64,000 nucleotides of DNA from Amoebophrya sp. A120 (Eukaryota; Protista; Dinoflagellata). Under the pieces are notes generated by a model. The model made no database searches and had not been told where the DNA came from. It worked only from the letters and a program-made list of their open reading frames with translations. Below are positions 30,401 through 63,390 of the stretch, piece by piece. Every line of letters starts with the position of its first letter. Position 1 is the first letter of the stretch. The DNA is taken from assembly GCA_905178155.1 (NCBI GenBank), contig CAJINV010000008.1, positions 1,240,001 through 1,304,000 on the forward strand, in the 5' to 3' direction. The translations under genes were made by a program, and so were the position numbers.

Positions 30401-33400
30401 AGTGCATCTTGCCCCTCGCAGTACATCTTGCCCCTCGCAATGCACCTTGCCCCTCGCAGTACATCTTGCCCCTCGCAGTGCATCTTGCCCCTCGCAGTGC
30501 ATCTTGCCCCTCGCAGTACATCTTGCCCCCGCGCATACGCCTCGCCCCTGGTAGGACTGCTTGCTGCTTGTCGTGCTAGCGCCCCTTTTCCATCGCAATG
30601 CGTTAGACCTCGCCTCGGCAGGCACATTGCGTTTTCTTTGGGCCGGTCGTTTGTTTCATCCTTTCAAGCAACCGACCGCATGTGGACCAGGGACGGAGCG
30701 CATGAAAGTCTCCCGGGCTCCATCCTCGAGGACTTCTATGCACTAAATATCTACGGACGCTGCAAAATCTACAAGCCTTTGAGTCAGCTCGCCCATGTTT
30801 CTATAGTCCCTCAATTATGAAGAAGTTGCCGCGCCGTTGTGCCAACACGGCGGCGCGAGTGCAGCATACTTTTTACTCGTTCGGTCGCGCATGTGTGGTG
30901 CAGCCCGCTCAGAGTTTTTTGTTTTTCATGCGACTCTGCAGCACTCACGCATAAATTTTTGCATGTTCCAAGTCTGACGACTTTCATGGGCTCACGCACA
31001 TCCGGGATCGGGGGGGTAGGAGGGTGTCTTCAAGCCAAAAAAAAATCCCTTTAGAAGTATAGCGGGAGGCGAAGGACCAGATTTAGCATGACAAGTTGCA
31101 TTCTTCCAGACCCAGACACTTTTACATTTGATAGCAGAACTTCGTCCAGCAGGAGGCTCAGGTAGAAACGGGCAGGCAGCTGTCGTTGATTCTGCTTCTG
31201 GGCACGAGCACGGAGTACGCCACGTCGCTCGGACTGCAGCTCCACTGCATTGCCCCGGTTGTCGACGCGCAGGAACTCCGCATCCTGCCCGAGGACCTGC
31301 AACTGCCCGCAGAACAAACGACTCCCGGCACCGCAGCTGCTCGTAGTACTGGAACAAGCTTGAACTCCACGAGCTCGTCGCTCACGTGGAGATTGCTAAC
31401 ACGGAAGTATCAAGAGGAACCCGAAGGCAGCGGTAACCAGCGCGATGACCTCTCCCGCCCGGAAAACCGTGCGAGTGCAGAGTTCGTTATGAATACAGGA
31501 GCGACGAGTAGCGACCGTGAAAGCCCTTCAGGACCTCCCGGCTTAAAAACTTCGCCAAGCGCTGCAGCAGAAGCAGTTCCTCAGCACACAGACGACGCAA
31601 TTACGACAGAGCTGCGGCCGTGGCTCCTTGGTCGATCTGACCTCCCGCCGCGAAGTATCAAAGTGAAAAAAGCCCCCACCCCATATCGGAAACGGAAGAT
31701 GCGCGAATTTGTGATGCTGTGTTTGAGTACACAAATCGACTTGCATTGGTAGAAGTCCAAGAGACGAAGCTGCGGCCTAAATTGCAGGGAATGTGTCATG
31801 CTGTTTCCCACTTCCAGTTGCCTCCTGTCATCCTGGAGCTGGAAGGCTTTCCCACGCTAGGCAGCACTACAGTTCGCATCCTTTGCCTTGTAGCATCACA
31901 AAGCTGATTTGTGACAACAAATCTGCATCACAGATTTCCGTTTTGATATGGGGAGGGGGCATGTCTCATTGTAATACGAAGAGTTGACCTGAACGGACCG
32001 GATTGGGAATTTTTCGTAGCGCCGACGGCCGTCGGTGGGGGCCCACTTGCAGATATTGGCGAAAATATCGAAAACCCGATGATGTCACCCGTATACGTGG
32101 GTAACATCACGGTGCCTTTCGCCCCCCAATCCGTCTTGAGTGGATTGCAAATGAAGATCTCCAGTACGGAGAGGGTGTTCTACAAGAAATCCGGGATCAA
32201 ATTGATCGGAAAAGAAGAAACAGCATCTGTAGCTGCATCAATATCTGACGACCCAACGGCAGCCGGGAATACTAGCGAGGCACTTCTGGAAAATTTCGAG
32301 TACCTGCTGACCATAGACGCCTGTGACTGGAGTTGCGATGTTTTTTTGAACGGTGAGCCGCTTGTCGCCCATCAAGGAGGGTACGACCGATTTCAGGTAA
32401 AGATTCCGGAAAAGTGGATTTTGCCTTCCTCGCAAAGCCAGTCCACTAGCTCCTTCGAGCTGCTGATTACAAGTTGGGATCCAACCGATAAGGGATGCGA
32501 GTTCGTGCAGTCTCCCCCGGTTCCCTGCATTAAGTGCTGCGCGGTGGCAACTCAGCCACGCGGGAAGCAGGTACTACATCAAATCACACTTTGCACTAAT
32601 AAAAAAAAGGAAGATCCAAACAAACCAAACGCATATAGTTAGACGCAAAGGAGGACTCTTAAAGGATCTGCGAAGAGTGATCGTGAAGTCAAGGCTCGAA
32701 GAGTTGTTCATGGCTTCGCTTCTCTCGCATAATTCCGAAAAAATCGCCATTTACGATTACGTATACTCACACTATCCACCACGACCAGGCGCTCGAACCT
32801 GGCTTCATCATGTATAGTCCGGTGACTGGGCTCTGGCGGGACGGCATCTGGGCGGAGTTGGTGCCGAAGTGCCGACTGCAAGTATCCAGGAAAAAACACC
32901 CATCCCCATCCAATTTGTATTTGTCATGCAAAACATGCATAAAATCTACTATTTGTCATGCAAAAAATGGATGGGGATGGGTGTTTTTTCCTGGATAGCA
33001 AGACTGGTCTTGGCATTACGACGCGTACGAGAAGAAGCTCACACTGTTTGGGTTCGAGCTGACCGAATCCTGTCACAAGATGGCGGCGGAGGACGTTTCG
33101 AGATTGAGTCTGAGGGCAGACCTCACATCGTTGACAAGAACCACAACTGGAAGCCCGTTGGGAGCCGCATCTTCTACTTCGCCGACAATCCTCACCTCCA
33201 CCATCCGACTTGCTCGGCATCCCCGCCAGGATCTCGCAGTCGATTTCAGCTTTCAGCAAAACAAAATTGTCTTGGACATAGCCACCAAAGTCGACTCCTT
33301 TCCAGAGTGGAGCGTCGCGTCGCCGAACTTGCACAACCTGACACTGACGGTTTCGTTGACATCCACAACTGGAGTACTAGAGGCCCAGCGCCAGCAGCAG

Positions 33401-37084: not shown

Positions 37085-40000
37085 ATGGCGGCCAAGGACA
37101 ACATGATTCTTTTCGAGCTGCGGCTCGAGGAGCTGCTGAAGAGCTACACCTTCGATATGACCGTGCGGGACCAGATGGAAATGGGCCAGCGGAAGATCTT
37201 TGCCGAGGCCGAAACTGTAACAAACGCAAAAGTTGTGTTGCACGACCGTCTGCAAAACAGTTTTGCCAAAACTCAGCCTTGCATGAAATTAAAACGTACA
37301 TAGTTAGAAGTACTTTAGCGTCTTCAGGCGGCGCATCAGGATCTTCTCACTCAGATTACCATGTTGGTACAGAGAGTCCTCGTCCGGCACGGACAAGCTC
37401 ACTTCTCGACACGTGGGCACTACTTTGCGATTTGATCACGTTTGTGGAGTAGCCTGCTAGACAAAAGCGATCTCGAAGCGGAGACTTTGCTTTCCATTGC
37501 GGAAATCGACCCAAAGGCGCATGCCGCGTCTGGTACAGCAGTGCCAGTGGATGTTGAGTCGAGACCTGCGTCCAGCACTGTAATTTCGGAGCACCAGCGC
37601 CGCCTGTTCTTTCCGCGCCCATCCGACATGAAGTTCTACGCGAAGGCGCTTCGGAAAAAGACTGGTAATTCATACATAGAATGGTACTAGTAAATCATGG
37701 CGCTTTATTTTGCTTGGTAGTCAGATTTCACGATCGCTGTCGCCGCTTATATGCGCATGATTCTGGAAATTTCTCAAAAAAAATAAAAAACCGAGCGAAA
37801 AACACCAAATACAGCTTCGGGCCAGCCCGCGCATGTCTGGCGGTTAAAGCTCCTCACCGTGTTTTATTCCATTCACCATGGAACCAAAGAATTGCTGCAA
37901 AGTTTTGTCGAGTCCCGCGGTCTTCTTCCGATCGTGGAATTTATGGGCTACACCAAGAACCGCCATGTCCAAAGCCAGGCCGTTGAAATTTTCCAGCACG
38001 CGCTGACGCTACCGACGTTTGCTAGCGTTGCGCTCGAGCTACAGCAAATCCAGACCTTGGAATTTTCCGAGCGAAAACAGAAGGGTGCGGAAGGAGACAC
38101 AGAGGGACGGGGGGATGAAAACGAACTTGAACCAATCACGCAGGCAAAAGGGCGCGGTGTTCTCCTGAACCATCCCTGGTGGCCCTTAGTGCAGGAGTTT
38201 CTGTTCTCTGGCCAACCAGAACACTCCAACTTCTTTCACCACATGCACGAAATGCTACTGGATACGCAGGATGTTTTCCCCCACTCGCGAGTCACCGCGT
38301 GCAAACTATTGGGTCTCGTGCTCCAGGTATAGCAGTTGTTCCATACTCCGAGTATGATACTCGAGCATGATCATTCTTGAATTTTTCCTCGAGACTGAAA
38401 TCCTCAACAAATAAAGGAGCAAGAAAAAACTATTGCAGGCATTCCTTCTTGTTTCTTTTTCTCTGTGCAAAAATCCCCAATAATGTCCCCCGGGGGAGAT
38501 GCCGGGTAACCAAGGTCCACTGGATTTCTCTTCATGCATTACGTTCGACACAAAGTAAAAAAGAGAAATGCCCAATCCAGGATATTTTGATCTCACCCGA
38601 GATCAACTTGCCCCGTCCGAGCCTAACGCAACTACCTACCCAGGAGTTGAGGACAGGGGATTTTAGCTTCTAGTTGTTGTGTCGGAACATTCTGAGAAAA
38701 GTCCCATAGGCCGCGACTTGCATCACATCCCTTTGGGGATCCTGTACTACTTTTCTCTCGAATTCTAAGCATTTTCTTTGTAAGATTGCGGCAATTGGCC
38801 ACCTGTATTTACCCTAGGTGGCAGGACACTCGGCCCCCAGATACCACCTGCACCCCTGCGGGCCGATCCCTTGGCTTTTTGTCTTCGAATAGTTACTGCG
38901 ACTGCGGCTTTTTGTTTGCATTCCTTTCGCTGCCACCTAGAGACCCATACCCCTGCTGTACCCCCCCGCCCGTTTTCGCACTGAAGAGCCCACCGGGCCT
39001 CTCGTGCTTGGTCGAACAAGAACACAACTACAAGGGCAGGCGTGGGGCCCCTCTTAACAGAACGAAACGGCACACCACTACCCGCAGTTTAAAACTAGAG
39101 GCCGAGGCTTTACGGGTTCCCGCGCTGTCTTTTGCATCTGGGCCCCTCGTGGTCACGTCTCCGCGCCACCCCTTGCCTCTTTCCGTAGTCGTGTATGTCG
39201 CTTCTTTGCTTGTCTGAGCCTCAGGACACCCTGCCACCTCTGCGCTCACGTAGTGAGTGCAAGCTGGCGCGCCGCCATGTGCATGCGACTGGAATAGTGT
39301 GGTGAAGTCTTAAACCCCCCCGCCTGCTCTGCGTATGAGTTTTGTTCATTTTCATTCTTTTTTATATAGAATAGAACGGGCCGCGCGTGCCAACACGCAC
39401 ATAGCTTAGTTGCCGCCCATGCCCCCGAGTTTTAAAGTTTTTAGCCTGTTGCCCCTCCTCACTTCCGAAAGTACCCAACGGAGAATCCCCTTCCCCTATA
39501 TTCTTCTGTGTTCTGTTCGATCGCCCCACAGGTGTTTTTCCGTGCCTGCGCCCGGTGTCTTCCCATCCGGTAGCCCCGAGGCTCTACCCCTGTGGCGCAT
39601 CGCCGCTTGGCCACGAATTACGATCAGCAACGGAAGGCAAAGATCGTAGCTCGTGGCCTATTTTTGGCTTCTCCTTTGGTTGTTTTCCTCTTCCCGACCC
39701 GACTGCTGTGCTGTTACTTATGTTATGTCGACACGACACGCGATCTCGCCCCCCGCCGATTTTGCATGATGGCGTCTGCAGTGGCAGACGAAGGCGCAGA
39801 AGTATTTTTTTTGCTGCCGCCTCACTCCGTTAAGCATTTGCCCGAGCGGGGCCGTGTTTCTCGGCGCCCAAAAAATCTTGTCGGGCCCTTCACTGACAAG
39901 GTTTTCGCACTGCGTAGCAAAAGATCAGCTGCAGGCGCGCGGGGCTTGTTTTCCCTTCATTTTGTTTTTCTTTTTCGGACCGCCAGATAGTTCCCCTTTA

Positions 40001-42338
40001 CTATCAACGAGCCCGCTCGTTTTTGCATATCTATGTGCCGCTCGTGTGTGGGGGGTTGTGAACTCGCTGTCGTTTTTGCATTGCCCAACTGATGCCCCCC
40101 CCTTCTTGCTTCCCGCAGAGACCTTGTGTGCCGAAAAATGGCGGGCGAAGCCTTGCTTCCCGTTTCCCTTATCCGTTGTGCCGCCCCGGCTTTCTTCGGT
40201 TCGGTGTTACTGCTTGGCAAAGTTTGGCACAGCAGTCGCGTCTGATCCTCTTGCATGCCGAGACTGCTTGTTCGCGCCTTTGGCGTTCTTTGAGGCTCGT
40301 ACACGGGAAAACTGTTTGCATGAATGAAGCCTGCTCTACCCTTGTACCCCCTTCAGTTTATTCCATCAACATTGTCCCCAAGATTTTGCGGGTTGGCATA
40401 ATCTGTCGGGTATTTAGTTTGCTTGGTCATGATTTAACGCCTTTTCCCTCCCCCGTCGGGGGGGGAAGGAAAGGGAACTCCCCCCCCCCCCCCAAGGAAA
40501 GGGAACTCTCCCCCCCTTCCGATCCTGACGGATCAAAAAGGATCCGTTTTTTTCTCGGATTCTTAATACGATGTAGGAACCGCCGGATAGGGAACCACCC
40601 GCCATAATGGATCTTCCCACTTGCCTAGCGGCCACCCGCGTTCCCGGCCCCGGAGCATCGGAAGCACTTTCACGGACCTTTGTTTTTTACCCATACATTG
40701 GTCCGTGAATGAGAGTCGCCTTGAGATTCCCTACCCCGTCACTTGATCCTATTGACTCTAGTACCCCGGATCGGTCGTATTGGCTCGTCAACTGGATCAA
40801 CTACAGTGCAGATGGTACAGCTCTCTTTCGGACATTCACGCTTCATTGGTTCTTGTCTTAAATTCCCACCCAACGTCGTCCTCCCCAGGAATGACTCGGA
40901 CTTTGCACACTTTCACTTTCACTTTCACCATCCCCAATAATGTAGCAGAAAAGCAAAAGCATGATCATGTACACGTTTTTTATGAGTTGTATCAACAAAA
41001 AACTGGAGGTTATCTGCCAGCCACTTTTGAGGCGAAGCAAAACTATGCTGTCCTCCTCCAGCTCTGCGAGTAGAGTCGTCCGGATCCCCAGCGAGTTGTA
41101 CGGGCGGATTCTGGCCCTGCACGAAAGCGGCGAATTGCCCCCAGACGACATGGAGGTTGTGCTGGAATTATTGAATTTTTTGAACGACTATGATTTTGAC
41201 GCCGAGCGGGCAGCTGCGGCGCGTGAGGATGCCGAAGACGTGGCAGCGCTGCAACGTATTTACGGCAAGAAGACATGCACGTCGGTAGAAAAGGGTGCTG
41301 ATGGGGGCCTGCAGAAAGCGACTTACGGACCCCCTTTAGCAGCATCTGCGGCAACATCGTCCCCTGCCTCTGGCGCGGCTGCCACCGAGGATTTCATTAG
41401 CAGTCAACTCGACCTGGTAGACGCGGATGTTGGCGTATCAAAGAATAAAACTGGTGCTTCTTCGGCGGAAACTGGCGCACACAACGGCTCAGGAGCAATG
41501 CCCGCCGTAGCTGATGTTGAACTTGCAAGCGGGGAAAGCCCTTCATCTGTTGCACAACGCAAGGACAGTATGGAACAGAGTAAAAGAAAATAACCGCGTG
41601 TCGTCTACGTCGTATGACATTCGTCTTCGTGTTAGCGTTGCCTATTTAGCAGAGTTCTCGTTGTCAACATGACATGTTTTACGCGATGAAGTGTGCCATT
41701 TCATTCTCAGCGGTTTGTTTTTGTATAATTTGTCATACGATGCTCACGACGACACCGTTCTTTTCCCCAGTATGAATGCGAAGCGACATATGGAAAACGT
41801 AGAAAAGGCCTTTCAGGACATGCAGTTTCACTTGGGCTTCTACAAAAAGATGGGGAACGAGGCTTTCAAGAAGCAAAATTTTCCCGGATCCATTGCCTGT
41901 TACGAGGCCGCGGTTGATGATGCTGGCGCCGGTTCAACTTCGTTTGCGCTTCTCCAGGGGTACTACAAAGCTTGTGGCCTCCTGCCTGACGCTGACCAAG
42001 ACCAAGTGGAAAAAGCCGAGTCAGTTTTTCTGAAAGAGCTCGACCGTCGTGCCGGCGCAGATAGAGAACTGCACGCCGACCTTTCGCGCATCGAAAATAA
42101 TCTGGCCATGAGTTTCTGGAAGACGTCCCGGACTGCGGAGAGCGCGCTGCACGCAAAAAGGGCCTGCGCACTGGATCCGACGTTCGCAAAAGCGTTTTAC
42201 CGCCACGCCGAGGCAGCATTCGCCTTAAATGACATGGAAACCGCGGAAGCGGCCATCTTCGAAGCCACGCGATTGGAGCCGAAGGATAAAACCATCATCG
42301 AGCTGAAAAAAAAGATTGTGTTGGCAAATCCCAATTGA
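37085..42338 (+). CDS. TPR-repeat protein (C-terminal co-chaperone-like TPR), 5 exons
   Basis: Motifs YKKMGNEAFKKQNF, NNLAMSF, ALDPTFAKAFYRHAEA and LEPKDK; introns about 37217-37441, 37665-37814, 38327-41008 and 41568-41769. Confidence 0.7.
37218..37437. mobile_element. Degenerate introner
   Basis: taacaaacgcaaaagt pairs with actttgcgatttgatc; removing the element plus 5 nt restores the frame. Confidence 0.55.
38375..40957. mobile_element. Candidate 2.6-kb non-coding insertion in an intron, 11-bp direct repeat AGCATGATCAT
   Basis: Repeat at 38364-38374 and 40958-40968 near both intron ends; removal leaves an 88-nt GT-AG intron; atypical homopolymer-rich composition. Confidence 0.5.
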
Positions 42339-47374: not shown

Positions 47375-48677
47375 TTTTCTTGAACAAGAATGAAAGCTAC
47401 ACCCCCAGCACCAGCACTCCGACCACAAAAAAACGACCTGCTTCCATAACGTACAGCTCCTCTGGACCAGACTTTTACGTACTTGTCGACGTTCCAAATC
47501 CAAATTTTGAACTCCGTCTCAACTTTTTGCTCCACTGTATTTTGCAATGATACCATTTCTACTCCTGTTCTTCAATATAAATATAGTTACCCTGCTCTTT
47601 CTGACTTCGCGAAACGCATCTGCTTTCGTTTTTAGACGCCTTTCTGCTTTGAAATTGATCGCAGCAGATAACCACGCCGCTTCATTGTTATGATCTCAGC
47701 TGATGCTTTAACTACTCTTAATTTGCATGATAAAGATAATGTCTACCACCTAAGCCTAACCACTTCCAGGGATTGTACACGTTCCAAAGCCCCGCCCAAG
47801 AAACATGACGCCCTTCCTTTGATCTACATGTGCCATCCTCCTCTTCTAGGGACATTCAATATGCGGCGTTCGGGGGCCCGAACGCACAGATATTGGGAGC
47901 GCGCATCGAATTTTTGTTGTCTGCCAAACTCAAAGCCACTTTCTTTTGTTTGCAAAATGTAAAGACTATTGTATAGAGGTGGAAGTTGCAGAGTAAAAAA
48001 GCCCCCGCAAGAACTACGAGAGCATGAATATGGCTGCTTTGCGTGGTACATACTTATACTTTCGAGCACCTTGTTGTAGGCATAGTTTCAAGGACGCGGG
48101 CGGAAAATTGTATGATGCTTTTTTCTGCTTAATTTGATCCACCGGTCGAGATCGTACAATTTCATCACCAACACACTCGCACTTACGCCTCTTTTGTCGA
48201 ACCATGGGACCGAGGACTTTATGGCCAGTTCGATGTAAAATGAAATCGAGTTGTGCCGTCACTTAGTACGTGAAGTTTCGTCTGTGAGCCATGGGGGTTC
48301 TTCGTGCGGCCAAACGAAAATCATGTGGTGTTCCGGTGTCATTTCTAGCATATGTTGAGTTGGATAGTCATAGTAGCTTTGCTGACCAAGGAAGCTAACC
48401 CATTTGCCACAATTTGGACATGAGACACCTTTCAGAATGTGTACATCGGTGGCCGTGTCAATCGTTGTGTATATCCGACGCGGTTGCTGAAATTGAAATT
48501 ATATGATGTGCCTCTCGCTCTCATGGTCGTGTATTAGATGACAGAGTCGCCCTGTGCTTCGATTTTTGCTTCTTGTCCACTTTTATCATGGTCTGTGATC
48601 ATGATAATTCGTGAAACACGTGTTCCGCTTCTTGTTCGTTTGTCCCTGAGCCTCTGCGCGTAGTCGAGAATCAATGG

Positions 48678-51094
48678 ATGAAAAGGAATAACAGCAGACC
48701 GCGCACGAGCTCGAGCCAGCAAGTACGTGCGAGAAAACCGGGTGCCAAAAGCAAAGCCGTGCCTATGCCCTCGATGGCGCCTTCTCGCAATGTTAGCAAA
48801 GGAGGAACACAACCGAAGAAGTCGCCTGGTGCAAAGCAGGCGGCCTACAACGACGTCGAAGATCCGGAGGAAGGTGGGAACGAATTGACGTCCTTTGTGG
48901 ACAGTGGAACCGCGAAGGCCCCACACACCATTGGAAAAAACCACAGTAAGATACAAATCAACGATGACGAGAACGACCCGGACAATTCGATCAAGCAGCC
49001 GACAGATCATGCGGAGAAGGGCGGCACGACAGAGGAGCCCGAACCTCCAAGCAAGTTGGCGATCATCGGCTGTATGTTTCTTAACTTTTGGAGCGCGATA
49101 TCCAAGATAAAGAAAAAAGTTCTGACGACATCAATGCAATTTTATTCGCCCTCCCTCCCTGCACGACCTGCTAATGTTGCTATTGCAAGACGGAGTGCGG
49201 GCCGAGGCGGCGTCCGCGTCTTGATCTAGTTGTACATACAGAGTTATGAATATGATGCTCCTGCTGCTAGATAGATGTCTAGTGCGCACAATCGTCACTT
49301 CGACGCTACACTCAACACGGAGGGACAAATGATCATCACGATAAGAAAATACAAGATTTATTGATGTCAGCTCGATTCGTTTTCTTGCATACGACGTCGG
49401 AATTATTTGGGTCAACAAGTGGGTCATGAATCATGGCTGGACCTGGACGACGCTGCTCACATTTAGGAATTGTAGACTCCTCCTGGTGCACAAGGGCAAG
49501 GTTTGTTGACCGACATGAATAAGTCGTGTAAAGAATACCGATGAATAAACTGAAATACTACGGCCTGAACGTTTCTTTTGTATGTTTGAAGTTGGAATAC
49601 AGACTTGCATACTCGGAGCCTGTAGTTTCGTGGCGTGCGTTCAGTAATTTTTTTTTCGTAAATCGCTAAACATTTTCCCAGCACGCACTTGCCTGGAGAA
49701 GGTTTTTCGTGAATCTTGCGGATGCACTTCGTCGCTTCGTACATCGGTTTGGAGATTTCATGGAGGTATAATTATAATTTCATCTTCACTTACTACATTC
49801 ACCTTGAAGTGCGACCTTCCCACCTGCTGCAATGACATACGTCCAGTTCGCCACTTCAATAGCACGACAAATAGCGTACAAGCACAGTTAACGCGCAAAA
49901 ATAGCATGATATTTTTTGAATCCAAAAAACAGGCGTCTCCAACTTTTCGAACCGAAAGACACGAACCTGCGGCAGGTGGTTCCGCTTTGCGCTTCCTTCA
50001 TCGCGTTTGTGGTGTTCAACAACCTGTCGCTCCAGTATAATACCGTCGGTATCTACCAGCTGCTGAAGGTCCTCATGACCCCAGTTATTGTCGCCCTGCA
50101 GTTCTGCATGCACGGGACGCTTCTCACCTTCTGGCAGTCGGTGTCCCTTATCCCGATCTGCTGCGGGGTGGCGATGGCAACCATCTCCAGTCTAGAGGTG
50201 AACGGGTTCCTCGGGCTTTTTTTCGGCGCCATGGGGATCTTTTCGACCTCCCTCTACCAGATTTGGGTGAAGTCCAAGCAAGCAGATTTGCAGCTGAACC
50301 CCTTTCAGCTACTGCATCACCAGTCCTTTCTATCCATGCTCATGCTCGCACCGCTGGCATTCTACGTGGACCGATCGTTCCTCTTCTGCCTCCAAGACTT
50401 CGCCTTAGCGGTGCAGCCCGACCCGGTGTGCCATGTCAAAGTCATCCAGCCTTTGAGTAAAAATCTCGATCTATTCCTTTTGATGTCAATTTGAATTTTT
50501 CTAGTATGCTGGGTATCAGTATGTCTGTGTCAGTGATCGTGTGCTGTTGATAAAGTTTGATATGCCTGATGAGAATGCGCTCAAATAAAGTACACGTCGC
50601 AGCATGGTCCGTCGAAAATTTGACTTCAATTTGGATAATGCTCGCACGACGTTTCACTTTCATTACTTTACAACAGGCGATCCGTGGTTTGTGTCGGCTG
50701 TCGGTTGCAGCTGTTTCCTAGCCTACCTGGTAAACCTGTCAACGTTTCTCGTCATTGGAAAGACCAGCCCCGTGAGTTATTTATGCGAGCAAAAACCTGC
50801 GTGGATCTGGATGTACATGTACTTTGCTAGTAGTAAATCACTCTTCATCGGGATGAAGATAACAAAGGTCTTGCAGTGGTCATGTCTTTTTGTAGGTTCT
50901 TGATTTTGACTAGACTCTGCCGCTCCCCCCGCAAGTTTTTGCAGTGATGGTGCCAGGTTCTGGGACACTCGAAGCTATTTGTCGTGATGCTTTCCGCATT
51001 CCTCATGTTCGGAGACTTGCCCTCATTGCAGAACTTGCTCGGGTGCGGCATGGCTTTGGCTGGAATTTTCTGGTACACGTGGCTGAAGATGTAG
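48678..51094 (+). CDS. Nucleotide-sugar transporter, TPT/SLC35E3-like
   Basis: Motifs LNFWSA-VGIIWVNK, MHF, NNLSLQYNTVGIYQLLKVLMTP, VNLSTFLVIGKTSPVSY-QVLGHSK; three introns appear non-canonical. Confidence 0.85.
49099..49391. mobile_element. Older introner (TSD degenerate, CGCGA/CGACG)
   Basis: tatccaagataaagaa pairs with ttcgtttttcttgcata; removal gives WSA|VGII. Confidence 0.75.
50782..50949. mobile_element. Degenerate introner
   Basis: Inverted repeat gcaaaaac(c/t)tgcg near both ends; intron 50781-50953 gives SY|QVLGH. Confidence 0.6.
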
Positions 51095-52333
51095 CAAGTC
51101 CATTCGGAAAATGATGATGGACACCGGTCTCACTCAATTAGTGAGGGAGACGAAGAAAAGAAGAGCTGCAAACACGACGACACTCTGGCATCATGCAAAG
51201 CACCGCGGAAAACCGCAAAGGAGAACAACGGGGAGAATCAGAATGAACAACCAACGACGACGTCGCGGCGCTGCTCCGCAAAGTCATGGCTCGATGTTGA
51301 TGAAGCGATGCCTTGATGAACTTGCTAGAAGACTATCCTCGAGGACATTACTTGGCGAACATTACGAAGAAATTTTTGAATGGTGTTGGCTGCCGCGGCA
51401 GACGCAGTCGCGCTGTAAGGGGTTGGTCTCGGGCGGTCTATTTCACGACAGAAATAGATTCATATATGTTCATCGCCGCAGTACCAGTAGACGAGAACTT
51501 ACCTAGATCACGCTTGGTAGAATACATTGAAGTTCTTCATCAGAATCAGCACGAGCTTCTTCCTACCAAGAATGGTTTGAAAAGCGCACCACCATCAAAA
51601 TGCCGGAACTACGAAAGATAAAATGACAGCCAGGTCGTGGCAGTGGTCTTCGACTGTGGTGTTTGCGCCGAAGTTGAGACTCATGTTCATCGTTTTTTCA
51701 TTTTTAGTATGTGACTGCCGCCCAGCCCCGACGAGTGTTGAGCGTGAATGCGTAGTACATCTTCTACTGGCCCTTTTTTCGCGTCATTTTTCTCGGGAGG
51801 TGCAAATAAGGTGGCGCAGCCTTATCTCTCCGACTTTTTACCTCCCCAAGTATAAAAGAACATTGAGAAGTGACACTAGATGGAGCTGAGTACTAGATCA
51901 CGAAAGTGCAACGTGCTCGTCAGGCTTGGCACTGCCTTCCGTCTACTTGATTCTTTTTTTCTTTTCTGGTTGACCAAGACGAACTTGTTGACGAGAGTGC
52001 TTTTTTCCATTATGAGTTCCGTGGAGATTTGCCTCCTTTAGTCCTGAAAGAGGGACTGAACTGGAATTGCCGCTGAGAGCGTTGTGCTATACTTGCTTTA
52101 GTCTCTACTAGTACTATGGTATGCGGACAAAGATGTGTGATATCGATATGCGTCTTTTTCAGTATCAGCATGATGTCGTCAACGTCATCGTCAACGTGAT
52201 ATATATACATAATGTTCCACATTTAGATGTTGCACGTGCAGTAAAATAAATTTTCGACGTCGGGGACGACAATGTAAGCGAGGTCTTTCTTCCTGGCGTG
52301 ATGTAGTTGCCCTATTACAACGGAAAGACGAAG

Positions 52334-55300
52334 ATGGATCAGAATCCATTAGACCATTGTGGCACTGCTAGTAGACGGGACGGCAGCTCCACGGACCCGG
52401 GAAATGGGGAGGCGGTCATCGGAATCGATGACCTGCCGGACCACGCCGCCATTGCCGGGGCCGCCGGTGTTGCAGGTACATCAGACGAAGATCACGGTGG
52501 TGGTGCGCTAACTGATATGAAACCTCGGGGGCGCGATCCTCGGAGACCACCAGTGCCCGGCGCTGATCCGCCACTCCAGTCCGCCCCATCTGCCATAGCA
52601 GGAGAGAGCGATGAACCTGAAGAGCCGCTTCCACCATCGAGCGCCCTGGTAGATGATCAACAAGGAGGTTTCGCACCGCAAGCAGGTGCGACGTCGGCGC
52701 ATCTTGCCGGCAGCTTTCTGGATGAAAATCCTAACGCCTTTTACCCAGAGAGCAACCTGCCCTGCAAGACGGGCATTCTCGTCCCTATGACCATCCAGGC
52801 GGAGAAGCGGCGTCTTTTTCACACCCAGATGCCGGAGCACCTGGAACCTTGCTTCCCGCCACTTGAGGTGCCACCGACAAACCCATCAGGCGGCGGCCCA
52901 GGAGGTGCACAACCTGTGCCCGTCCCCGCCCCGCCTTTTGGCTCGTCCGCGGGCGGATTCCATACCAGTGGAGGCGCGGGCAGCAGTCGCATGGGAACGG
53001 CGGCAGGCGGTGGGGGCTCTTCCTCGACCTCTGCCTACCCACCACCCTCGAGCAGTGCAGCTTTTCTGGGCCAGCACTCGACTGCACTGGGTGCTGACCG
53101 AGAGTCAGCTGGAGCAAAGACGACCGGAGTGAGTGACTACAGTATGGGCACCAGTGGGAACATTCTGGAGGAAGTCTATCGTCACGAGGCGGACCGCATC
53201 GCGAATCCGGAAAAGTGTATGAATCGCATTGTCTACGATTCGGTCGACCCGAGCCCTTTCCTCCAACAAAGAAACGGCAATCCAGAGGGTGAAGGCACAA
53301 CCAAGGGACCCTTTTTTTCCGAAAAAAAGCGGAAGAAGCACAAAGAAAAATCAAGCACAACTCCAGCATCGAAGCTGCTTACGGGTAACACTGGCTGCGT
53401 GACGCACGAGCTGGATCCGTGGTATCCGCTCGCGAACGCTCCTCGAGTCTCAGAGCAATTGCTGCACGTAAACTCTTTTTCGCGCAACACGAGCAAAGAT
53501 TCCTCTTCGTCGTCCGGTACCAGCAAGGACAGCAACCGCAGCACGGTAACGAGCGTGGCCGAGCTGCAGAGCAGCAGTTCCTCGTCTGCCTGTATCGGAA
53601 AGAAAATCTGGTGCGCCTAAGTGCGATCGATGAACCACGGCACGTCCTCGACGTATTCTAGTCATCCAAGAAAAGCAGGATCCGATCTTCCCATCTCTTC
53701 TAAGTAGGTGGCGAGTATCAACAGAAGGGAGGAGTAGATATGAATAGATTTTGTAATATAATAACTCGCTTGCACCTACACCTGCACACCTAATAGTGCG
53801 TCGCTTCGTCGTCCAGATTTTCGAGCGCGAAGCCGATACTGGCAGTGATTTTTTTCAGGCACATTTTCCACCACTTTGTATTCAAAGGCGGTCCTGCTGT
53901 GCCTTTTTCATCTCGCCGTGATTTTATTGTGGCAGCACTTCTGCTTCTGACGTTCCATAGCTTGTTCTTCGACTGCCGCGCCAGTGAACCTTTGTGGCAC
54001 GACGACCTGCAATGGAGGGATAGGGAACAAAACGAGCACCACATCGAACAAACTGAAAAACAACTCGAACTGCAACCCCATGTCAAGCAGTGCTGCCTCC
54101 GGTAGTTGCTCGCTGCGACAGGATCATGATGCCGATGCGGACACGACACTGCAGTTTGAGTCGAGATTCGAGAGCGGGAACCTGCGGCGCGTCGTCCAGG
54201 TTTCGGCGTTCGAATATGACTTGGTTTTGAACCCGGACTACAACACGACGTCGCACGCGCAGTGGTTCTATTTTCGTGTGGCGAACACGCGGAAAAACGT
54301 GCGGTACCGGTTCAATTTGATCAACATGATCAAGCCCACGTCCTTGTACAACGAGGGCATGCGGCCCGTGGTGTACAGCATGCGCGAGCACAACGACCCG
54401 AGCATTGGCGGGAAGTGGATGCGCGCGGGGGAAAAGTGTGCCTACTACCAGAACGGTATTGCCAAGCTATCCCACGAAAAAACTGCTTCACTGTGATGAT
54501 TTTGCAAGATTTGCATCACAAGTTTGTTACACATGAAGAAGAAAACTTGGCATGCGTGCTTCCTAAGGGAAAACACTGCTAAAAATCCAATGTCTTGCAT
54601 GTGTAGCAAGACAAACACATTTGCGTTCCGTTCTATGCATCACAAGTTTACAGTGAAACAGTTTTTTCTTGCGATACAAGCGGCGCGGGGTCTACTACAC
54701 GCTCACCTTTCAGATCGCCTTTTCCTACGACTTCGACGTGGTTTACGTGGCATATGGCGTTCTCAAATGTTACATTCTAAATTGTTACATGAATTTGTAA
54801 TGCGAGAACGGCAAAAGTGAATGGGGGAAGCTTGCGCCTTTTGCATCACAGATTTGGCACTGATTTACATGCTGTTTAGCCCCTTCGAAGATTTGTCGTG
54901 CGAAGCAGCTTAATGGTGGCGATCTTGATGGCAAATTTGCATGGCAAATCATGTAACAGTTGAGAGTGTAGTAACATTTGAGAATCCCATATGGCGCAGT
55001 GCTATCCGTACACCTACACCGACCTGCAGTACGATTTGTCAAAAATCGAGGAGGACGCGAAGCCCCGCAACTGCTTCCGCCGCCGCAAACTCTGCGAGAC
55101 GCTGGCTGCGAACGCCTGCGACCTGATAACGATCACAAACTTCGCGGCGCCTCCACCCGCTAGCGCAGCGACCGGTGTGCAGGGGAAAAACGGCGCGTCA
55201 GCCTCAGCCGGCAGCAGCACAACTCGTGCCGTCTCATCTACAACAGGCCCTACAACCGCGACGGCGACGTTCAATCACCTGCGAGATCGGTTCGGCGTGG

Positions 55301-57053
55301 TTATCACTGCGCGGGTCCACCCGGGGGAAACCAGCGCCAGCTGGGTGATGAAGGGGATTCTAGAGTTTCTGAGCGGACCGAGCCGCGAGGCGGAAATTTT
55401 GCGCGACAAGTTCGTGTTTAAGCTGATCCCCATGCTGAACCCTGATGGTGTGGTGGTGGGAAACTACCGCTGCAGCCTAGCTGGCCTAGACTTGAACCGT
55501 CGGTGGCAGGAGCCAAGTCGCAAGCTGAATCCCACGATCTACTTCACGAAAAATCTGTATGGAAGTGGTGCGAGCTGGCGGGAAGTCGTCATTTAAATGG
55601 TGACTAGGTAGGTTTTTATGTGGTCGAATAGCGGTCGTAGCGCTACTTACCGAGGACTTGCAGCTCGAACGAACGCTGTCGCGTGCCGCTCCTTAGCGAA
55701 AGAAAGAATAGCTGGCCTTATTTTTCCTAATTTGTACGGCTTTACCTTTATATGCGTGGCCCGCCCAGCATTGAGCGCAAGCTTGTACAAGTACGAGGTC
55801 TATTTTGAAAAATTAGCGACTCTCTGCATGGCTGCACTCCGATAATTTGATCAAGCGACTTCTGGAGGATCGGGACATTGCGCTTTTTCTCGACATTCAC
55901 GGTCACTCGCGGAAGAAAAACATATTCATGTACGGAAACATCCCGGCGGAGGAGCAGGAGTTTGGGGTGGAGCGAATCTTTCCGAAACTGCTGTCGCAAA
56001 ACTCTGACTACTTCTCCTTTCCGGACTGCAACTTCAAGCGGGTCAAAGAGAGCACAGCGCGGTGTGTCGTCTACAAAGAATTCGGGATTGTCAACTCGTT
56101 CACGCTGGAGGCAAGTTTTTGCGGCCCCAGCATCGGACGGCTCAGGGACAACCATTTCAACACCCATCATGTACATTTGTCATTGGCCAATTGAATTCTT
56201 ATTTATTTGTCTTTCTCTTTACATGTGTTGCAGAAAATGATCTTTTCGAGCTGTACCAACGTTGGCTCTAGGCTGTGAGTAGGTCAAGCAAATAAAACGC
56301 ATCGAGCAGAGTAGTCTGGATATGGCGCCGACCAGAAACAATATCCAGCACATGCACGGCATAGAAAAGTGTACGCTTTAGTCTTAGAAAGATATCGGCG
56401 TGTTGCCGGAGCAGTATGCTGCATCAAATTAACCGAAAAAAAATCAGTTGGAGCGAATGGGCGCGGATTTGTGTAAGACGCTTCTCGATTACGAGAACCA
56501 GCAGAAGCTGTCGCAACTGGCGAAGGAGTTGGCGCAGAGTAGCGGTTCCATCAATTGCGACAGCGAAGATGGGAGCGACGTCGAAGAGGTGCCGAGCGAC
56601 ACGGGCGGCGCAGAGAACGGCAATCGAGGCACCAACTTACAAGTGGTGGGTAGTGGAGCAACCGCTTCGAGCAGTCTGGCACACGGTGGTCAAGGTCAAC
56701 AATATCTGGGAGACTCAACAGCAGCTGTCTCAGACGGTGTATTCAATGATCATCAAGACGGCCGGGTGGACTTACTCGGCAACAGTGCGCGCCGTGGAGG
56801 GCCTCCTGCGCAGCATTTGGCTACCTCGAGCGCGGTCGTTACTACGACGACACCACGGGGTGGGTACTACAACTCCACCGGCGCTGCTCCTCTAGACGCG
56901 GGTGGAAACGTTAATCTTCTTTCGGTTTTCAGTGCGAGTGGTGCGGAAGCGAAGAAAATGCAAGTTCCGTCGACGCCGGTGAAAAAGAAGAAAAGTGGGA
57001 ATTCGGAGAAAAAGCAAAAGTCCTTGACCAAGAAGACCCGTAGTTCCAACTGA
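52334..57053 (+). CDS. Cytosolic carboxypeptidase (M14D, Nna1/AGBL tubulin deglutamylase family)
   Basis: Motifs FESRFESGNL, QWFYF, YYTLTF, CYPYTY, ARVHPGE, PMLNPDGV, GNYRC, DLNR, DIHGHS and SFTLEAS; 4 introners plus a GT-AG intron at 56171-56447. Confidence 0.92.
53593..53959. mobile_element. Older introner, TSD GCCTG/GCTTG
   Basis: tatcggaa...ttccata; removal joins ORF 52307 to ORF 53984 in frame. Confidence 0.7.
54468..54676. mobile_element. Introner, TSD CAAGC
   Basis: 27-bp TIR tatc.ca.gaaaaaactg.ttcactgt; removal gives IAK|RRGVYYTLTF. Confidence 0.93.
54753..54991. mobile_element. Introner, TSD TGGCA/TGGCG
   Basis: TIR tatgg..ttctcaaatgttac; removal gives VYVA|QCYPYTY. Confidence 0.92.
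55558..55844. mobile_element. Older introner, TSD ATCTG/ATTTG
   Basis: tatggaagtggtgc pairs with gctgcactccgata; removal gives TKNL|IKRL. Confidence 0.75.
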
Positions 57054-58356
57054 TGAAGTTCCTTTATTTCATCCCTGAGCTCCCGTTCATGATCGCTGAC
57101 GATCAGCACGAGAGTGCGGATCATCAAGTGGAGGTGGAGCCGTGGAAATATTAAGCCGTGGTAGTTCTTTCTACTATGTCTATGTGGCCCCCGCCCGTGT
57201 TTCTTCGCTATAACTTTGCGTCGTGTCTTCACGCAAATAATGTGATCCAGATTTCGTGTCTTTGACTTCGTCTCTTCGCAGACACGGTCGCAAAAACATG
57301 CGCGTCGTGACCTCTTCTTTATTTCTCATATTTGTGATCGTTCGAGTTGCAGCTATCGAGGAACTTCTCCGCGCCCCTTCGCCGCTGATGTTGCATTTGG
57401 AAGCTGGGGCTACCTCATCGTGAGCAGATAGTGAAACATAATATCGCCGGCGCTCTTGTTGCCGCAATCTTTACGCAGGTGGAACCATGAGTACAGGGAA
57501 AAAACAGAAGAACGCACCGGCAGTTGCATCAGTCACTTACACCATTACAGTTGCGGGGCTTCTCTGGCCGCAAAGAGTAGCATGATCCAGGTGCCTAGAA
57601 CGGTGCAGGATGAAAACGAAATTGAAACACAAAGACGTGCTAGGAGGCGGCTATGAAATAGCTGCAGGGTTTCAAAAATTTATCGTAAGAGCGATCCCGA
57701 TCGCGATTGCTCTTCGAAATTAGGCCCGCGCATTGATTAACGCGACGCGACTGTAACTGCACTTGGACGTTGTATATATGATTGTTGCATGTGTACTACT
57801 ACTAGTGCTAGTGTCATAGAAGTCATCACGAGATGGAAGCACAAGCTTTAGCAGCTTAGCTTTTGTGGATAGAGAATAGCCAAAGGAGCGGACGCAGAGC
57901 AAGGCACTCACAGCGACGGGTCAGAAAGCAAGAACGTCGGTCGCCGGAATATCGTGCTTGAGAAGATTCAAGACCAATTATAATCGTCGCAGAAACTCCT
58001 CCATGCCGCCCCTCCCGCTAGCACTAGTGATAGACAAAGATTGCTCTTCGGGTTTCATTTGCTACGAACTTATCATACCCCATTCGCGTGAAGATGAGAT
58101 GATTTAGACTTTATAGACACCATTGCTTCTTCGTATTTTCATTTTCGTAAATAGCTGCGTCTGATTGCGATTTCCGTATATCTGGGAGCAAGCTTCTTGA
58201 TTCGTGACTAAGTAAAACCAGAGGGAGGTCCACGGGGCCGGGGGTAAGAGGAGCCGCAGGCACGCATTCTTCCCCAAGGACGTGCTTTCGGGATTACAAC
58301 TTCTCATCCACCCTAGAGGAGCAATCGATTCGTCGGCGAAAGGAGAAACCGGCCCC

Positions 58357-60376
58357 ATGACGACGTCCTTCCAGACGATAGAGCCGCCTGCCGGCATGGG
58401 AGAGCGGCACGCAGGACCTGCACTTGCGGCGCAGGCTCAGATGAGTATGACGCATCGGCAATTTAGCGACGAAGAGATAAAGGAGGTACTACCTCCTACG
58501 TGGTCATTCTAATGTTTACCCACGTCTTTGACTTTGATGACCCTGCAACGTCGGCGCCTCTGCGCTGTCCCCAGGAGAAAGCGATCCTCTCAGTATTGTA
58601 AAGAGTTTCTAATAGAAACTCTTCAGTATTGCGAAAAGGAAAGTGACAGTAGCATTGCGAAGATGCGGTCGCTTATTAAGGCACTTTTCAACAACTTATG
58701 ACAGGCATTTGAAACGTTTGATTTGGACAACAATAATTTTGTCGGAGCGGCAGAAATCAAGCACATTCTTGGCCTTGTGGGCGAGAAGGCAACCGACGAT
58801 GAGGTCGACGAAATGATACGGATGTGCGACGCCGATGGAGACGGGCAGGTCACGTTTGACGAATTTTACAAGTTGATGTCAAACCCCTACAAGGAGCGAC
58901 CACTCCCCACGATGCCCAAAACGCAGTTCGTTATCGCAGCGCATCCCCGTCTGGGGCCCACCGCACCGAAGGGTGGCATCGATAAACCTGTGCCAAAAAC
59001 TAAGGTGGCCGAGGTTCTGCAGGACGTCATCACGCAGCTAGCGGGCGGTATACCTCCATCAACACTTTTTGATGTACCAACTGAATTTGGCAGTGCTGAA
59101 ATATAATTACGCGGGCGCGCGCTATTGAATTCGTTAGAGTTGTCTCAGGACGAGTTGGTTTTTTGCGTACATCCACACGGCCACTTCGACGCAGAACGAG
59201 GACCGGGACTCGTGCTGCAACCATAGATTTTTGTGAGATTGCTTCGATGTCGACGAATGCGAATGGTATTTTTATTTCTTTTCTCGTCCTCATCTCAGGT
59301 GGTCGGCTGAAGCCAAGTCACATCAAGAAAATTTACAAGTCGTTTCAAGCGGTGGATAAAGACGGCACGGGTTTTGTAGATTACCCCGAGTTCCTGGAGG
59401 TCCTGAAGCAAAACGACTCCGCCATCATGAAAGAGGTCTTTAAACTGTTCGACTTGGATATGGATCTGTCAGGATTGAAATCGTCAGAGTTGAGATGATT
59501 TGTGACGCATGCAATGGATACTAGTTACGTTAGAACTACAGTTTGTAGTCGCTGCGTGACAAATTTTGTCCGTACGGGAGGCCAATTTGTCATGCTGCTT
59601 AGGGCAAAGGGGCTCCCCTCTGTGATGCTAATCAGCAGCCCAATTCTCGACCCTTACCAGCACTACAATCTGCCTCCCTTGCGTCCTCTGCAAGAGAGGC
59701 AATTTCTGTGTTGCATTCTATGCAAGACAAACTATTGCAACTCTGACGATTTCGATCCTGACGCTTCCATATTGGACTTCAACGGGACGGTCGAACTGAA
59801 GGAGTTTGTGACGGTCCTTTCCTCCTTCACCACCGCAACCAAGACTGACAAACTCAAATTCGCATTCATGATGTTCGTATGCGAGGCGGAAGCAAAAACT
59901 CCTCGATGCTCACGTGAAGGTTGTATGCGTGAAGACGCGAAGAACGACATGCAGGTCTATGCAAATAGAAATAGTTGTTGCAAGTAGGAGAAGGACCTGG
60001 ACCACTAAACCTAAAGCAAGAAAAAAATGATGACTCGCTCGCCTTCTTCGCTATTGCAAGTATGATGTGGGAGCTTCTTCTAAATTCAAATTCGCATTAT
60101 CGTCGATGGGGGCGCTGTTCCGCTGCATAGCTGGACGAGGACGGAAGCGGGCAGCTGGAGCGTGCAGAGTTGGAGCGTATTCTGCGCGCAAATTTTATGA
60201 CCGCGAACCTCCTCCAAAACGAGATTGAACGCAAGGCGGAGGACATATACAAAGCCATCGGGCTTGACAGCGGCACGCCTTTGACGTACGAGCAGTTTAT
60301 GGACCTTTCGAAGTCCCACATAGAGCTGCTGTACCCTGTCGCACAGATAAAAAAGACCATCAACGATCGTGCGTAG
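58357..60376 (+). CDS. Multi-EF-hand calcium-binding protein (calmodulin-like pair plus calcineurin-B-like region)
   Basis: EF loops [48 protein letters not shown] and [12 protein letters not shown]; GT-AG introns 58486-58704 and 59048-59298 plus two introners. Confidence 0.85.
59459..59771. mobile_element. Introner, TSD TTGGA
   Basis: 34-bp TIR tatgga...gtcaggat.gaaatcgtcagagttg; removal rebuilds the EF loop FDLD|FNGTVE. Confidence 0.95.
59878..60129. mobile_element. Older introner (TSD degenerate, GTTCG/GCTGG)
   Basis: tatgcgaggcggaag pairs with gttccgctgcata. Confidence 0.7.
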
Positions 60377-61434
60377 ATGAAATGAGAAGACGGAACAAGA
60401 GGAGGCGTTGTTCCTTCGGCGAATTCGCAGAAGCAGAAACTGAAACCGGGTAGCTCCTGTGCAGTGCAGACGCGATTGGGCTGATCTTAAGTGGAGATGA
60501 GAATGTTGTAACTGGACTTCACTTTGATGTGAGAACGGCTGTCCTCGTCCGCCAGGCCTTAATCGCAGAACAGCAAACGTGAGCAACAAATGTGTGGTGC
60601 AAATGGAAGTTGGTTTCAGTACGCGAAACTGCTGCTTGCGAATGAACTTCTTTCGAAGAAAAGGCGCTTCTTGATTATCCGCTTCATCGGCCCCAATATT
60701 TGAAGATTTTCTTGAACTTGATGTTTCCTACGAGGGCGTCAGGCTCCCGGTCGAACCCGGAAGTTGCGAGCAATTTTGACTGCAAATTTGAACACCGGAG
60801 GAGCCGCTCGAAAGAGGCGTCAGCACTTTCATTCCACGAAGCTCACCACAATGAATCGGTCCTCTGCATCTGCAATTAATCGCAACGTCGCACGCACATC
60901 AAGATGCCGCCGTAAAAATATACAGGAAAAAAATGAAAATCTAAATCACTGCTGCGAGAAAGATAAAGGAGAAGCTTCGGAACAAGCTCATGACAGTTCA
61001 TCTTCACACAGATGAGGCGGCGCGTTCTAAGAGGTTAGCTTTTGTAACTGGATCAGAAATAGCAATAGGCTTCCATCGTCGACGATCAAATCTAAAGTCG
61101 AAAGCAATATGCGATATTCGGTTGTGTCCGCGTCTTGATTGCTTTTCGGTTATGATCATTATCGGTTACAACTGACCTAAACCGACGGCTGTTGATGGCA
61201 GACGTTCCCAGTGCCGGTGAGCATTGCTTCAGGCTTTGGGCAGTTCCTCCTATTGTCTCTTTTCTTTCGTGTCTTTTTTGGTTCACACCTGGCGCACTTG
61301 GCGATCATGTTGAGCTACAGTAAATTATAATTACCTCGGATATTTTTGATTTTGTGATTTTCATTTTGATAGGGAATTGGTTGGGTGCGCGGAGGTCGAG
61401 TTTGTCGCATCGGTCGCAAGACCGCCAGAAGAAA

Positions 61435-63390
61435 ATGTCGACCTCCATCGACATTCCTAAATATGCGTCCGAGTTCGTCGGGACCTACATCCTGGTGCTC
61501 ACCATCGGATGTAATGTCCTCGGTGGCACCGCGGTGTGGGCGGTCACCTCGATTGCCTGCGCTCTGATGGTAAGCATCTACGCCTTCGGTGCAGTCTCCG
61601 GGGCGCACTTCAATCCTGCGGTCACACTCTCCATTGCTCTCACGAACAAAATGCCCGGGGGGTTTAAGGAAGCTGCCATCTACATGGTACCACTCTGCAT
61701 TTGGAAATTGTTCTTCATTGGCGGCGTCCGTTGGAAAAAGAAAAAAGAAAAAACACAAGCTTCGTATGGAGATTCGATGATGTTATGGCTGGCAGTGAAG
61801 CTGCAGCTGTAGTAGCTGTCTTCTAAAAATTGTTCGTGTCGTACTGTAAGAGACCTCGAACAGACACTGAAAGTCGAGGAGGATGACATTGCCATAAAAT
61901 CGTAAAGACAATCTAAATCGCAGGCCGTGCAGCTCGCGGGCGGTATCTGTGCTGGGTTTACCTACCTCGGGCTGTTCAAAACGGCATTTGAACTGGGCCC
62001 AGGAAAGGGCCACACCTGGCTCGCGGCCGGCGTAGTGGAATTGCTGTACACAGCCATGCTGTGCTTCGTGGTGTTGAACGTGGCCTGCGCGTCGGCCAGC
62101 ACGGACAACCAGTACTACGGGCTGGCCATCGGGTTTGTGGTTGTCGCGGGAGGCTATGCGGTGGGCACCATTTCCGGGGGTTGCTTCAACCCCGCCGTCT
62201 CCTTCGGTATCGACCTGGCCAGCTACGACAAGGGCGTCTACATGTGCTTCGTGTACCTCGTGTTCCAGATGATCGGCGCCGCGCTCGCGGCCGGGCTCTT
62301 TCGCCTGGTCCGCGCGGAGGACTTCGGCGGCGTGGCGAACACGCTGAACAGCAAGTTGATCGCGGAAGCCGTCGGAACCTTCGTACTCACCCTCACCGTG
62401 GGCTTCAACGTGCTCACGGCCTCCGCCGCGGGCGCGTACTCCATCGGGGCCAGCTTGATGTGCATGATCTACGCGCTGGGGAACGTTTCTGGCGCGCACT
62501 TCAACCCGGCGGTAACGCTGGCCGTGCTGTTGTCCGGGCGGGACATCATCTCCACCAACGATGCGCTGAAGTACATGGGGGTGCAGACCCTGGCCGCCAT
62601 GGTGGCCGGCCTCACCTACATGGGCGTGCTGGGCATGTCTTTCCGCGTGGCGCCGGGACTGGGCTGGTTCAAGACGGGACTGGGCGAGGTCGTCTACACC
62701 GCCCTGCTCTGCTTCGTTGTGCTCTCGGTCGCCACGGTCAAGAAGCCGTCCGCTGATATGTTCGGCCTCGCGATCGGCTCGGTTATCACCGTCGCGGGCT
62801 TCGCCGGCGCAAGCATGGGAGTGGTACATTTTAACTTATGTTCAGTTACCACTGTGTTTTCTCTTTTTTCTTACATTCTGTCCATGCCGTACTGAACACG
62901 GATTGTTTGACAAAACTAAATCTAAAACGACAAAAATTAATAAAGGTATTGAACCCGGCGTACGAAATTGTAATGCGCGCATTCACAAGCTCACTGCGTC
63001 CAAACCCGACATGTGTTGTTATGGATTGCCTGTCTGAACTGGTTTACAAGAATTCCAAATGCCACTCGTTACAGGAAATTCCTCTACAAGTTCATTTCAT
63101 GCTTAAAAGTACATTGTGCGTGCATCTATAAAGCCTGGTCCTGCCAGATATGACCATTTTTTCGTTCGCGGTTAAATTGCGCAGAGCGGCGATTGCGTGG
63201 ACTTTCGTCTTTCCATAGCGGTGTCGGAATCGGCATCGATTTCACGAACATGGTGAAAGGCGGACACTTCGGAAACTCTCTGCTGTATACCTTGCTGGAG
63301 GGTGTCGGCGCTGCCGCTGCCGTTGGACTCTTCAAAACCGTCCGCCCTGCTGAGTACGACGCCGTAAAACCCGGAAAGTTGATGCCGTAA
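61435..63390 (+). CDS. Tandem (two-MIP-domain) aquaporin
   Basis: Four NPA boxes (HFNPAV, CFNPAV, HFNPAV, VLNPAV); the last lies on a micro-exon at about 62946-62960; introns 61687-61924, about 62824-62945 and about 62960-63221. Confidence 0.9.
62961..63217. mobile_element. Degenerate introner
   Basis: tacgaaa...cgcattc versus gattgcg...tttccata; removing the element plus 5 nt gives NPA|VGIGID. Confidence 0.55.

Follow-up and report, generated by a model that had tools for sequence, protein, structure and literature searches.

One splice register for non-canonical introner introns in a 64,000-nucleotide window of the Amoebophrya sp. A120 genome

The closest described relatives of the introns considered here are the introner elements of the dinoflagellate Amoebophrya sp. 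A120 (Farhat et al. 2021, PMC7789003). According to the text and legends of that paper, the elements carry inverted repeats of 8-20 nucleotides (nt) that start with TAT, together with direct repeats of 3-5 nt, and non-canonical introns exceed 60% of the total in A120; in strain A25, introns begin with TT and the repeats with TTA. Nearly all spliceosomal proteins are reported in A120, as are the U2, U4, U5 and U6 small nuclear RNAs (snRNAs); U1 snRNA is not. The same text and legends treat intron borders as variable and unknown, and the legend to S23 gives 'at 1-5' nucleotides as the distance between inverted repeats and splice sites. We have analysed 64,000 nt of the A120 assembly (GCA_905178155.1, contig CAJINV010000008.1, positions 1,240,001 to 1,304,000 of the forward strand; hereafter the window), in which the elements are published A120 introner elements and thus belong to a class that is already known. 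They share with the published introners the TAT repeats, direct repeats over the intron borders, ends other than GT-AG and strain-specific positions. They differ from what the text of PMC7789003 states in having one register, a constant A at position -7 and T at -6, and in-frame AGs that are skipped. In the open literature, which leaves subscription papers uncovered, we found no statement of a fixed register, a constant A-7/T-6 or AG skipping in Amoebophrya; given the S23 legend, the offsets may already be contained in the figures of PMC7789003. We are highly confident that the major spliced form of the non-canonical introns in the window follows one register, N-TA...A-T-N-NNNN.

An earlier note on this DNA, made from its letters, had deduced that these introns start 1 nt before the terminal inverted repeat (TIR) and end 4 nt after it. 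We define the register k as the count of intron bases preceding the 5' TA, so that this rule corresponds to k = 1. Alignment of runs to positions 44001-64000 of the window gave 34 joints, of which the 15 considered here come from X1 (2) and from X3 and X4 (13). The spliced contigs of X3 and X4 come from one sample, recorded only as 'RNA?', and they reveal the major spliced form, minor forms being dropped. These contigs also lack ordinary GT-AG introns, and the DNA-like X1 contigs are continuous through introns. The X1 joints at 54676/54677>54753 were discarded as repeat effects. Because one of the X3/X4 joints conceals a 14-nt micro-exon, the 13 joints represent 14 introns, 6 of them GT-AG and 8 non-canonical.

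At four of these eight non-canonical junctions (49098-49395, 49463-49719, 50781-50953 and 62960-63221) k = 1 is the sole register that fits. Under a uniform null, four of four falling in one pre-stated register of six has a probability of 0.0008. The others, starting at 53592, 54467, 54752 and 55557, permit 4, 6, 5 and 3 registers, respectively, with k = 1 among them each time; across ten introns, the eight RNA joints plus 59458 and 59877 in an EF-hand gene, the only shared register is 1. The elements, with their TIRs and target-site duplications (TSDs), lie where the earlier note had put them. Three of the loci with mismatched TSDs that it had named, 49098-49395, 50781-50953 and 62960-63221, are joined exactly as it predicted, without sliding, and the unambiguous junction 49463-49719, absent from its list, has the same register. 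At a further named locus, 54752-54995, the predicted register is permitted but registers 1-5 all fit, and the joint is not decisive.

Canonical splicing at nearby sites is ruled out, as no GT-AG register exists at any of the eight RNA joints, nor at the EF-hand introns 59458-59775 and 59877-60133. An assembly artefact or a deletion at the DNA level is likewise ruled out, since X1 contigs carry the introns. In three introns that begin with GT (53592, 59877 and 62960), an AG lies in frame 3 nt short of the acceptor, and the contigs pass over it each time. Use of the AG at 62960 would insert a residue after the NPA motif of an aquaporin; V, I or L directly follows the last NPA in 63 of the 65 related contigs scored. 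The expectation that these introns need no acceptor AG and ignore neighbouring GT and AG sites was thus borne out. In the EF-hand gene, 60134 is the first base of an exon piece, and the record length missing in both X3 and X4, 605, equals the sum of the predicted exons; together these support removal of 59877-60133 (k of 0 or 1) and of 59458-59775. Under the rule the gene has an open frame of 324 amino acids that reads ...MMF|DEDG..., the F-DEDG junction foreseen at 59878.

Public gene models provide a second source, which is not fully independent because they were built from transcript alignments (PMC7789003). Three public A120 proteins (P0122, P0137 and P0147) match window exons at 100% and yield 13 junctions, 5 GT-AG and 8 non-canonical; seven of the eight permit the rule, and two are informative. 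The model agrees with the earlier note at 37217-37441. It departs from the interval 41568-41769 given there, ending instead at 41778, which fits the rule better; an end at 41769 would keep the reading frame, which the AG at 41770 would not. The aquaporin model, P0122, reads through 62960-63221 and ends in a wrong tail, whereas spliced contigs and relatives show that this intron is removed. Of the three models compared, one misses a non-canonical intron, and one has a junction that breaks the frame of an upstream exon. In all, the independent single-register junctions number five, a small set taken from a single RNA sample and from public gene models.

To count bases at the intron ends we used ten older non-canonical introns, seven placed by RNA and three by gene models, of which seven have a TSD matching at three or fewer of five positions. 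A second, young set comprises 14 elements whose five-base duplication matches at five positions (11 elements) or four (3 elements); in the older introns the match ranges from 0 to 5 of 5. The young elements come from a scripted scan for TA...TA inverted repeats, which gave 76 candidate pairs, largely chance or nested ones, and they were chosen for TA ends. With that choice in mind, 13 of 14 young elements have repeats starting TAT, as do 7 of 10 older ones. All ten older introns carry T+2 and A+3 (five of five in the independent count, the TA having chosen the register for the other five), so the invariant T that had been predicted at +2 holds. A-7 and T-6 are also present in all ten, and these were unselected, as the data themselves determine how long each intron is. 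Other positions vary: +4 is T in seven, +1 is G in seven, T in two and A in one, and -5 is A in six, G in two and C in two. The 3' TA is consequently not invariant (TA six, TG two, TC two). A free 3' end had also been proposed, and this applies to the last five bases but not to A-7 and T-6. The last four bases are variable and none of the ten introns ends in AG, which places them outside the GT...AG pattern of U2-type introns; of the 14 young elements, the rule gives an AG end to 2 and GT-AG ends to none. Termini are shared among copies in the window, DNA depth is high at 54006-55339 and 59342-60008, and a 23-nt terminus pattern had no matches in viral contigs.

Canonical and non-canonical introns coexist within single transcripts, and their donors are related. 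All nine supported canonical introns start GTA, and the non-canonical ones start NTA. The nine supported GT-AG introns have A-rich ends (A at 0.44 over -30..-3) and no pyrimidine tract. A-7 is found in eight of these nine (p 0.008 against the 0.44 background) and in three of four that were inferred from the reading frame.

The ends of the older introns pair with their own partners, with a duplex energy of -20.2 kcal/mol against -13.1 kcal/mol when partners are swapped, and none of 20000 swaps was as strong. Canonical introns have no such preference (-4.6 vs -5.2 kcal/mol, p 0.89). Mean complementarity is highest at the +2:-5 offset (5.8 vs at most 4.0), and A+3:U-6 is the only pair present in 10/10 older introns and 14/14 young elements. 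Beyond the shared motif, ungapped pairing of cognate ends is not significant in the older introns (p 0.08), and the complementarity may be left over from the TIR rather than maintained by selection. When whole introns are folded, the terminal pairs of the rule register have a probability of at most 0.07 in six of the ten and above 0.7 in two. Mismatches occur at +2/-5 in two of ten and at +4/-7 in three of ten, and the cut does not move. A-7 is kept where +4 has changed in four cases and the reverse in none, which is too few for significance, and no change is compensating. The earlier note had proposed the RNA hairpin as the reference point for the acceptor; because terminal pairing is so often broken or improbable in old copies while the cut stays constant, this part of its reading is not established.

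What is removed, then, is a TIR element with its 5-bp duplication, together with base 5 of the left duplication and bases 1-4 of the right one. As the last left base and the first four right bases lie inside the intron, removal restores the coding sequence whatever the target. Our favoured explanation, held tentatively, is that a modified spliceosome cuts these introns, probably counting from A-7 rather than reading AG. It would read U+2/A+3 at the donor and place the acceptor six bases beyond A-7; the putative branch point would be this adenosine, which belongs to the ATA that ends the right repeat. The terminal hairpin could join both ends in place of bridging by U1 and U2AF and then unwind, and G+1 and AG would no longer be needed. 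The shared donor UA, the mixed transcripts and a near-complete spliceosome that lacks a reported U1 snRNA favour a spliceosomal route, and A-7/T-6, to judge from their one-sided retention, may be read as sequence.

Several points weigh against this explanation or the register beneath it. No U2-complementary consensus lies upstream of A-7 in the ten older introns, where -8 to -14 vary, and the branch role of A-7 is putative. In a sample of ten, A-7 and T-6 could be TIR relics, and an apparent drift to G at +1 (7/10 older vs 4/14 young) is not significant (p 0.095). A-7 occurs in only one of seven further canonical introns read by eye. The -7/-6 bases are conserved as TG in euglenid introns, which exit as circles, so such a geometry needs no branch A. 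The evidence covers 15 of the 34 joints, and X3 and X4 are one sample. Finally, one public junction, 28719-28867, is discordant, with an end 7 nt before the one that the rule gives. Either an annotation error or a minor form probably accounts for it, as the rule joins an open upstream exon, while the model (P0137, a glycoside hydrolase) starts frame-shifted at 28693 and omits open upstream exons within 27481-28874. As a mark of canonical introns in general, A-7 was rejected, standing at 12/20 once the frame-inferred introns are added.

Alternatively, these introns could be handled as has been proposed for euglenids: an endonuclease that recognises the structure would cut 1 nt outside the terminal stem on the 5' side and 4 nt outside it on the 3' side, and the exons would be joined by a ligase. 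The intron-specific complementarity of the ends, found in non-canonical and not in canonical introns, is what such an enzyme would use, and it would require neither G+1 nor AG. Euglenid introns offer a precedent, with a similarly offset stem, conserved +4/+5 and -7/-6 and circular products in the accounts considered here, and the text of PMC7789003 does not report U1 snRNA in A120. However, canonical introns in these genes have an identical donor UA at +2/+3, the terminal pairs are broken or improbable in six of ten older introns with the cut unchanged, and a second splicing system would be demanded for most introns of the genome. We consider this route unlikely. The same doubt attaches to the broader proposition that most A120 introns are removed by a second, spliceosome-independent machine, or else by a spliceosome stripped of U1, G+1 and AG reading, with fixed offsets that match the 5-bp duplication and converge with euglenids down to -7/-6. 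Were this so, a transposon could land harmlessly at any site in any exon.

Less probable again is a spliceosomal reaction in which the hairpin itself sets the acceptor, through a stem-binding adaptor on A+3:U-6, with the branch elsewhere and A-7 kept as part of the stem. The universal A+3:U-6 pair in both sets and the complementarity peak at +2:-5 are consistent with this, yet A-7 persists when +4 changes (in those same few cases), and ungapped cognate pairing past the motif falls short of significance. That there is no single rule, and that the observed register is merely the commonest of several genome-wide as the legend of the source paper would have it, is improbable: the public model at 28719-28867 does differ and our joints are major forms at 15 of 34 sites, but a TSD lets most junctions slide in alignments and so mimics variability by itself, T stands at +2 in all nine 'predominant in A120' dinucleotide pairs of Table S4 of PMC7789003, and the five single-register junctions all agree.

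Table 1. Introns and related features of the window, in window coordinates.
Feature	Position	Strand	Evidence
Non-canonical intron A-TA...A-TA-CGAC, TSD 2/5, transporter-like gene	49098..49395	+	RNA joint 49097>49396, single register
Non-canonical intron T-TA...A-TC-TTGC, TSD 0/5	49463..49719	+	RNA joint 49462>49720, single register
Non-canonical intron T-TA...A-TG-GTGC, TSD 1/5	50781..50953	+	RNA joint 50780>50954, single register
Non-canonical intron G-TA...A-TA-GCTT	53592..53963	+	RNA joint 53590>53963, 4 registers
Young TIR element, perfect TSD CAAGC	54467..54680	+	RNA joint 54462>54677, 6 registers, uninformative
Young TIR element, TSD 4/5	54752..54995	+	RNA joint 54747>54992, registers 1-5: start at least 1 nt before TA
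Non-canonical intron G-TA...A-TA-ATTT	55557..55848	+	RNA joint 55555>55848, registers 0-2
Young TIR element, perfect TSD TTGGA, EF-hand gene	59458..59775	+	Scan, 605 length sum, open frame
Non-canonical intron G-TA...A-TA-GCTG, EF-hand gene	59877..60133	+	RNA piece from 60134 in X3 and X4; registers 0-1
14-nt micro-exon, most of aquaporin NPA motif, after GT-AG intron 62824-62945	62946..62959	+	11 letters inside joint 62826>63222
Non-canonical intron G-TA...A-TA-GCGG, TSD 1/5	62960..63221	+	Single register; relatives read NPAVGIGI
Non-canonical intron G-TA...A-TC-ACGT	37217..37441	+	Public protein P0147, 2 registers
Non-canonical intron G-TA...A-TG-AATG	41568..41778	+	Public protein P0147, single register
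Non-canonical intron G-TA...A-TA-CGAA, perfect TSD	31655..31980	+	Public protein P0137, 7 registers at protein level
Young element	28719..28874	+	Scan; rule gives 156 nt, public model 149 nt
Young element, TSD 4/5	6183..6339	+	Scan; open frame under rule

Several other features of the window were recorded alongside these introns. A search with an aquaporin exon led to a protein cluster with members from Amoebophrya AT5, A25 and A120; aquaporin exons 1-2 match the A120 protein at 100% identity, AT5 at 94-95% and A25 at 90%. A metagenome scan with the aquaporin alignment returned mostly intron-free contigs and no A120-like genomic copy; one metagenome contig (L071, 4100-6300) encodes a distant aquaporin (57% in the best segment) with introns that by eye are GT-AG-like. 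One spliced contig, in X3 and X4, covers 56448-60952, that is, the end of one gene and the entire EF-hand gene, which reflects overlap or read-through. Nested inner inverted-repeat pairs occur at 27824-28058, 54771-54970 and 31684-31948; some start TA, and they are possibly older termini. At 28216-28240 an exon end and its GT-AG donor resemble by eye the 5' terminus of element 27784, perhaps an exonised element end. The long introns 38327-41008 (2.7 kb, GT-AG) and 28926-31137 (a 2.2-kb TIR element with a perfect TSD) contain repeat-like inserted DNA, with a short tandem array near 30330-30530. An intergenic segment of 605 bp at 43506-44110 has a perfect inverted repeat of 17 bp at its ends; the repeat begins with TA, and there is no 5-bp duplication.

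The rule sharpens the question of intron borders, which the text of PMC7789003 leaves undefined. A single rule would explain how the genome tolerates tens of thousands of insertions without a GT or AG at the target, and it permits re-annotation of public gene models.

Among known systems, as described in the parts of the sources considered here, Micromonas-type introners (PMC11282704) share with the A120 elements an origin like that of miniature inverted-repeat transposable elements and a TSD split between exon and intron that restores the gene. They differ in carrying or co-opting GT/GC and AG, whereas only 2 of 14 young A120 elements end in AG and none is GT-AG. Fritillaria borealis (PMC13326754; PMC11282704) also has transposon-derived non-canonical introns, reported to be removed by a U2-type spliceosome; it prefers AG-AC/AG-AT and keeps U1, while in A120 +1, -1 and -2 are free and no U1 snRNA has been found. 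In Yarrowia, Giardia and Trichomonas (PMC2483917) and in Stentor (PMC9505925) the acceptor lies at a fixed distance of a few bases past a constant A, at -6 to -8 by our count. Unlike the A120 introns, those introns retain GT and AG and, for the most part, a strong branch consensus. Euglenid introns (PMC3935182; PMC11282704) and those of hemistasiid diplonemids (PMC12621601) share non-canonical ends, an end-to-end stem and TSD-like repeats with the introns described here, and the likeness extends to a 3' overhang longer than the 5' one, conserved -7/-6 positions and a register derived from repeat-free copies. A stem joining the ends, as in euglenids, is supported in A120 by the stronger pairing of cognate than of swapped ends, although the terminal pairs are weak in six of ten older introns. 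Euglenid introns pair CA (+4/+5) with TG (-7/-6), have overhangs of 3 and 5 nt, leave exons that meet at pyrimidine|purine junctions and give circular products; A120 has T-S at +4/+5 and AT at -7/-6, and so lacks the CA/TG pairing. Its introns combine UA at +2/+3 with AU at -7/-6 and overhangs of 1 and 4 nt, and the resemblance to euglenids that the earlier note had suggested holds as one of geometry.

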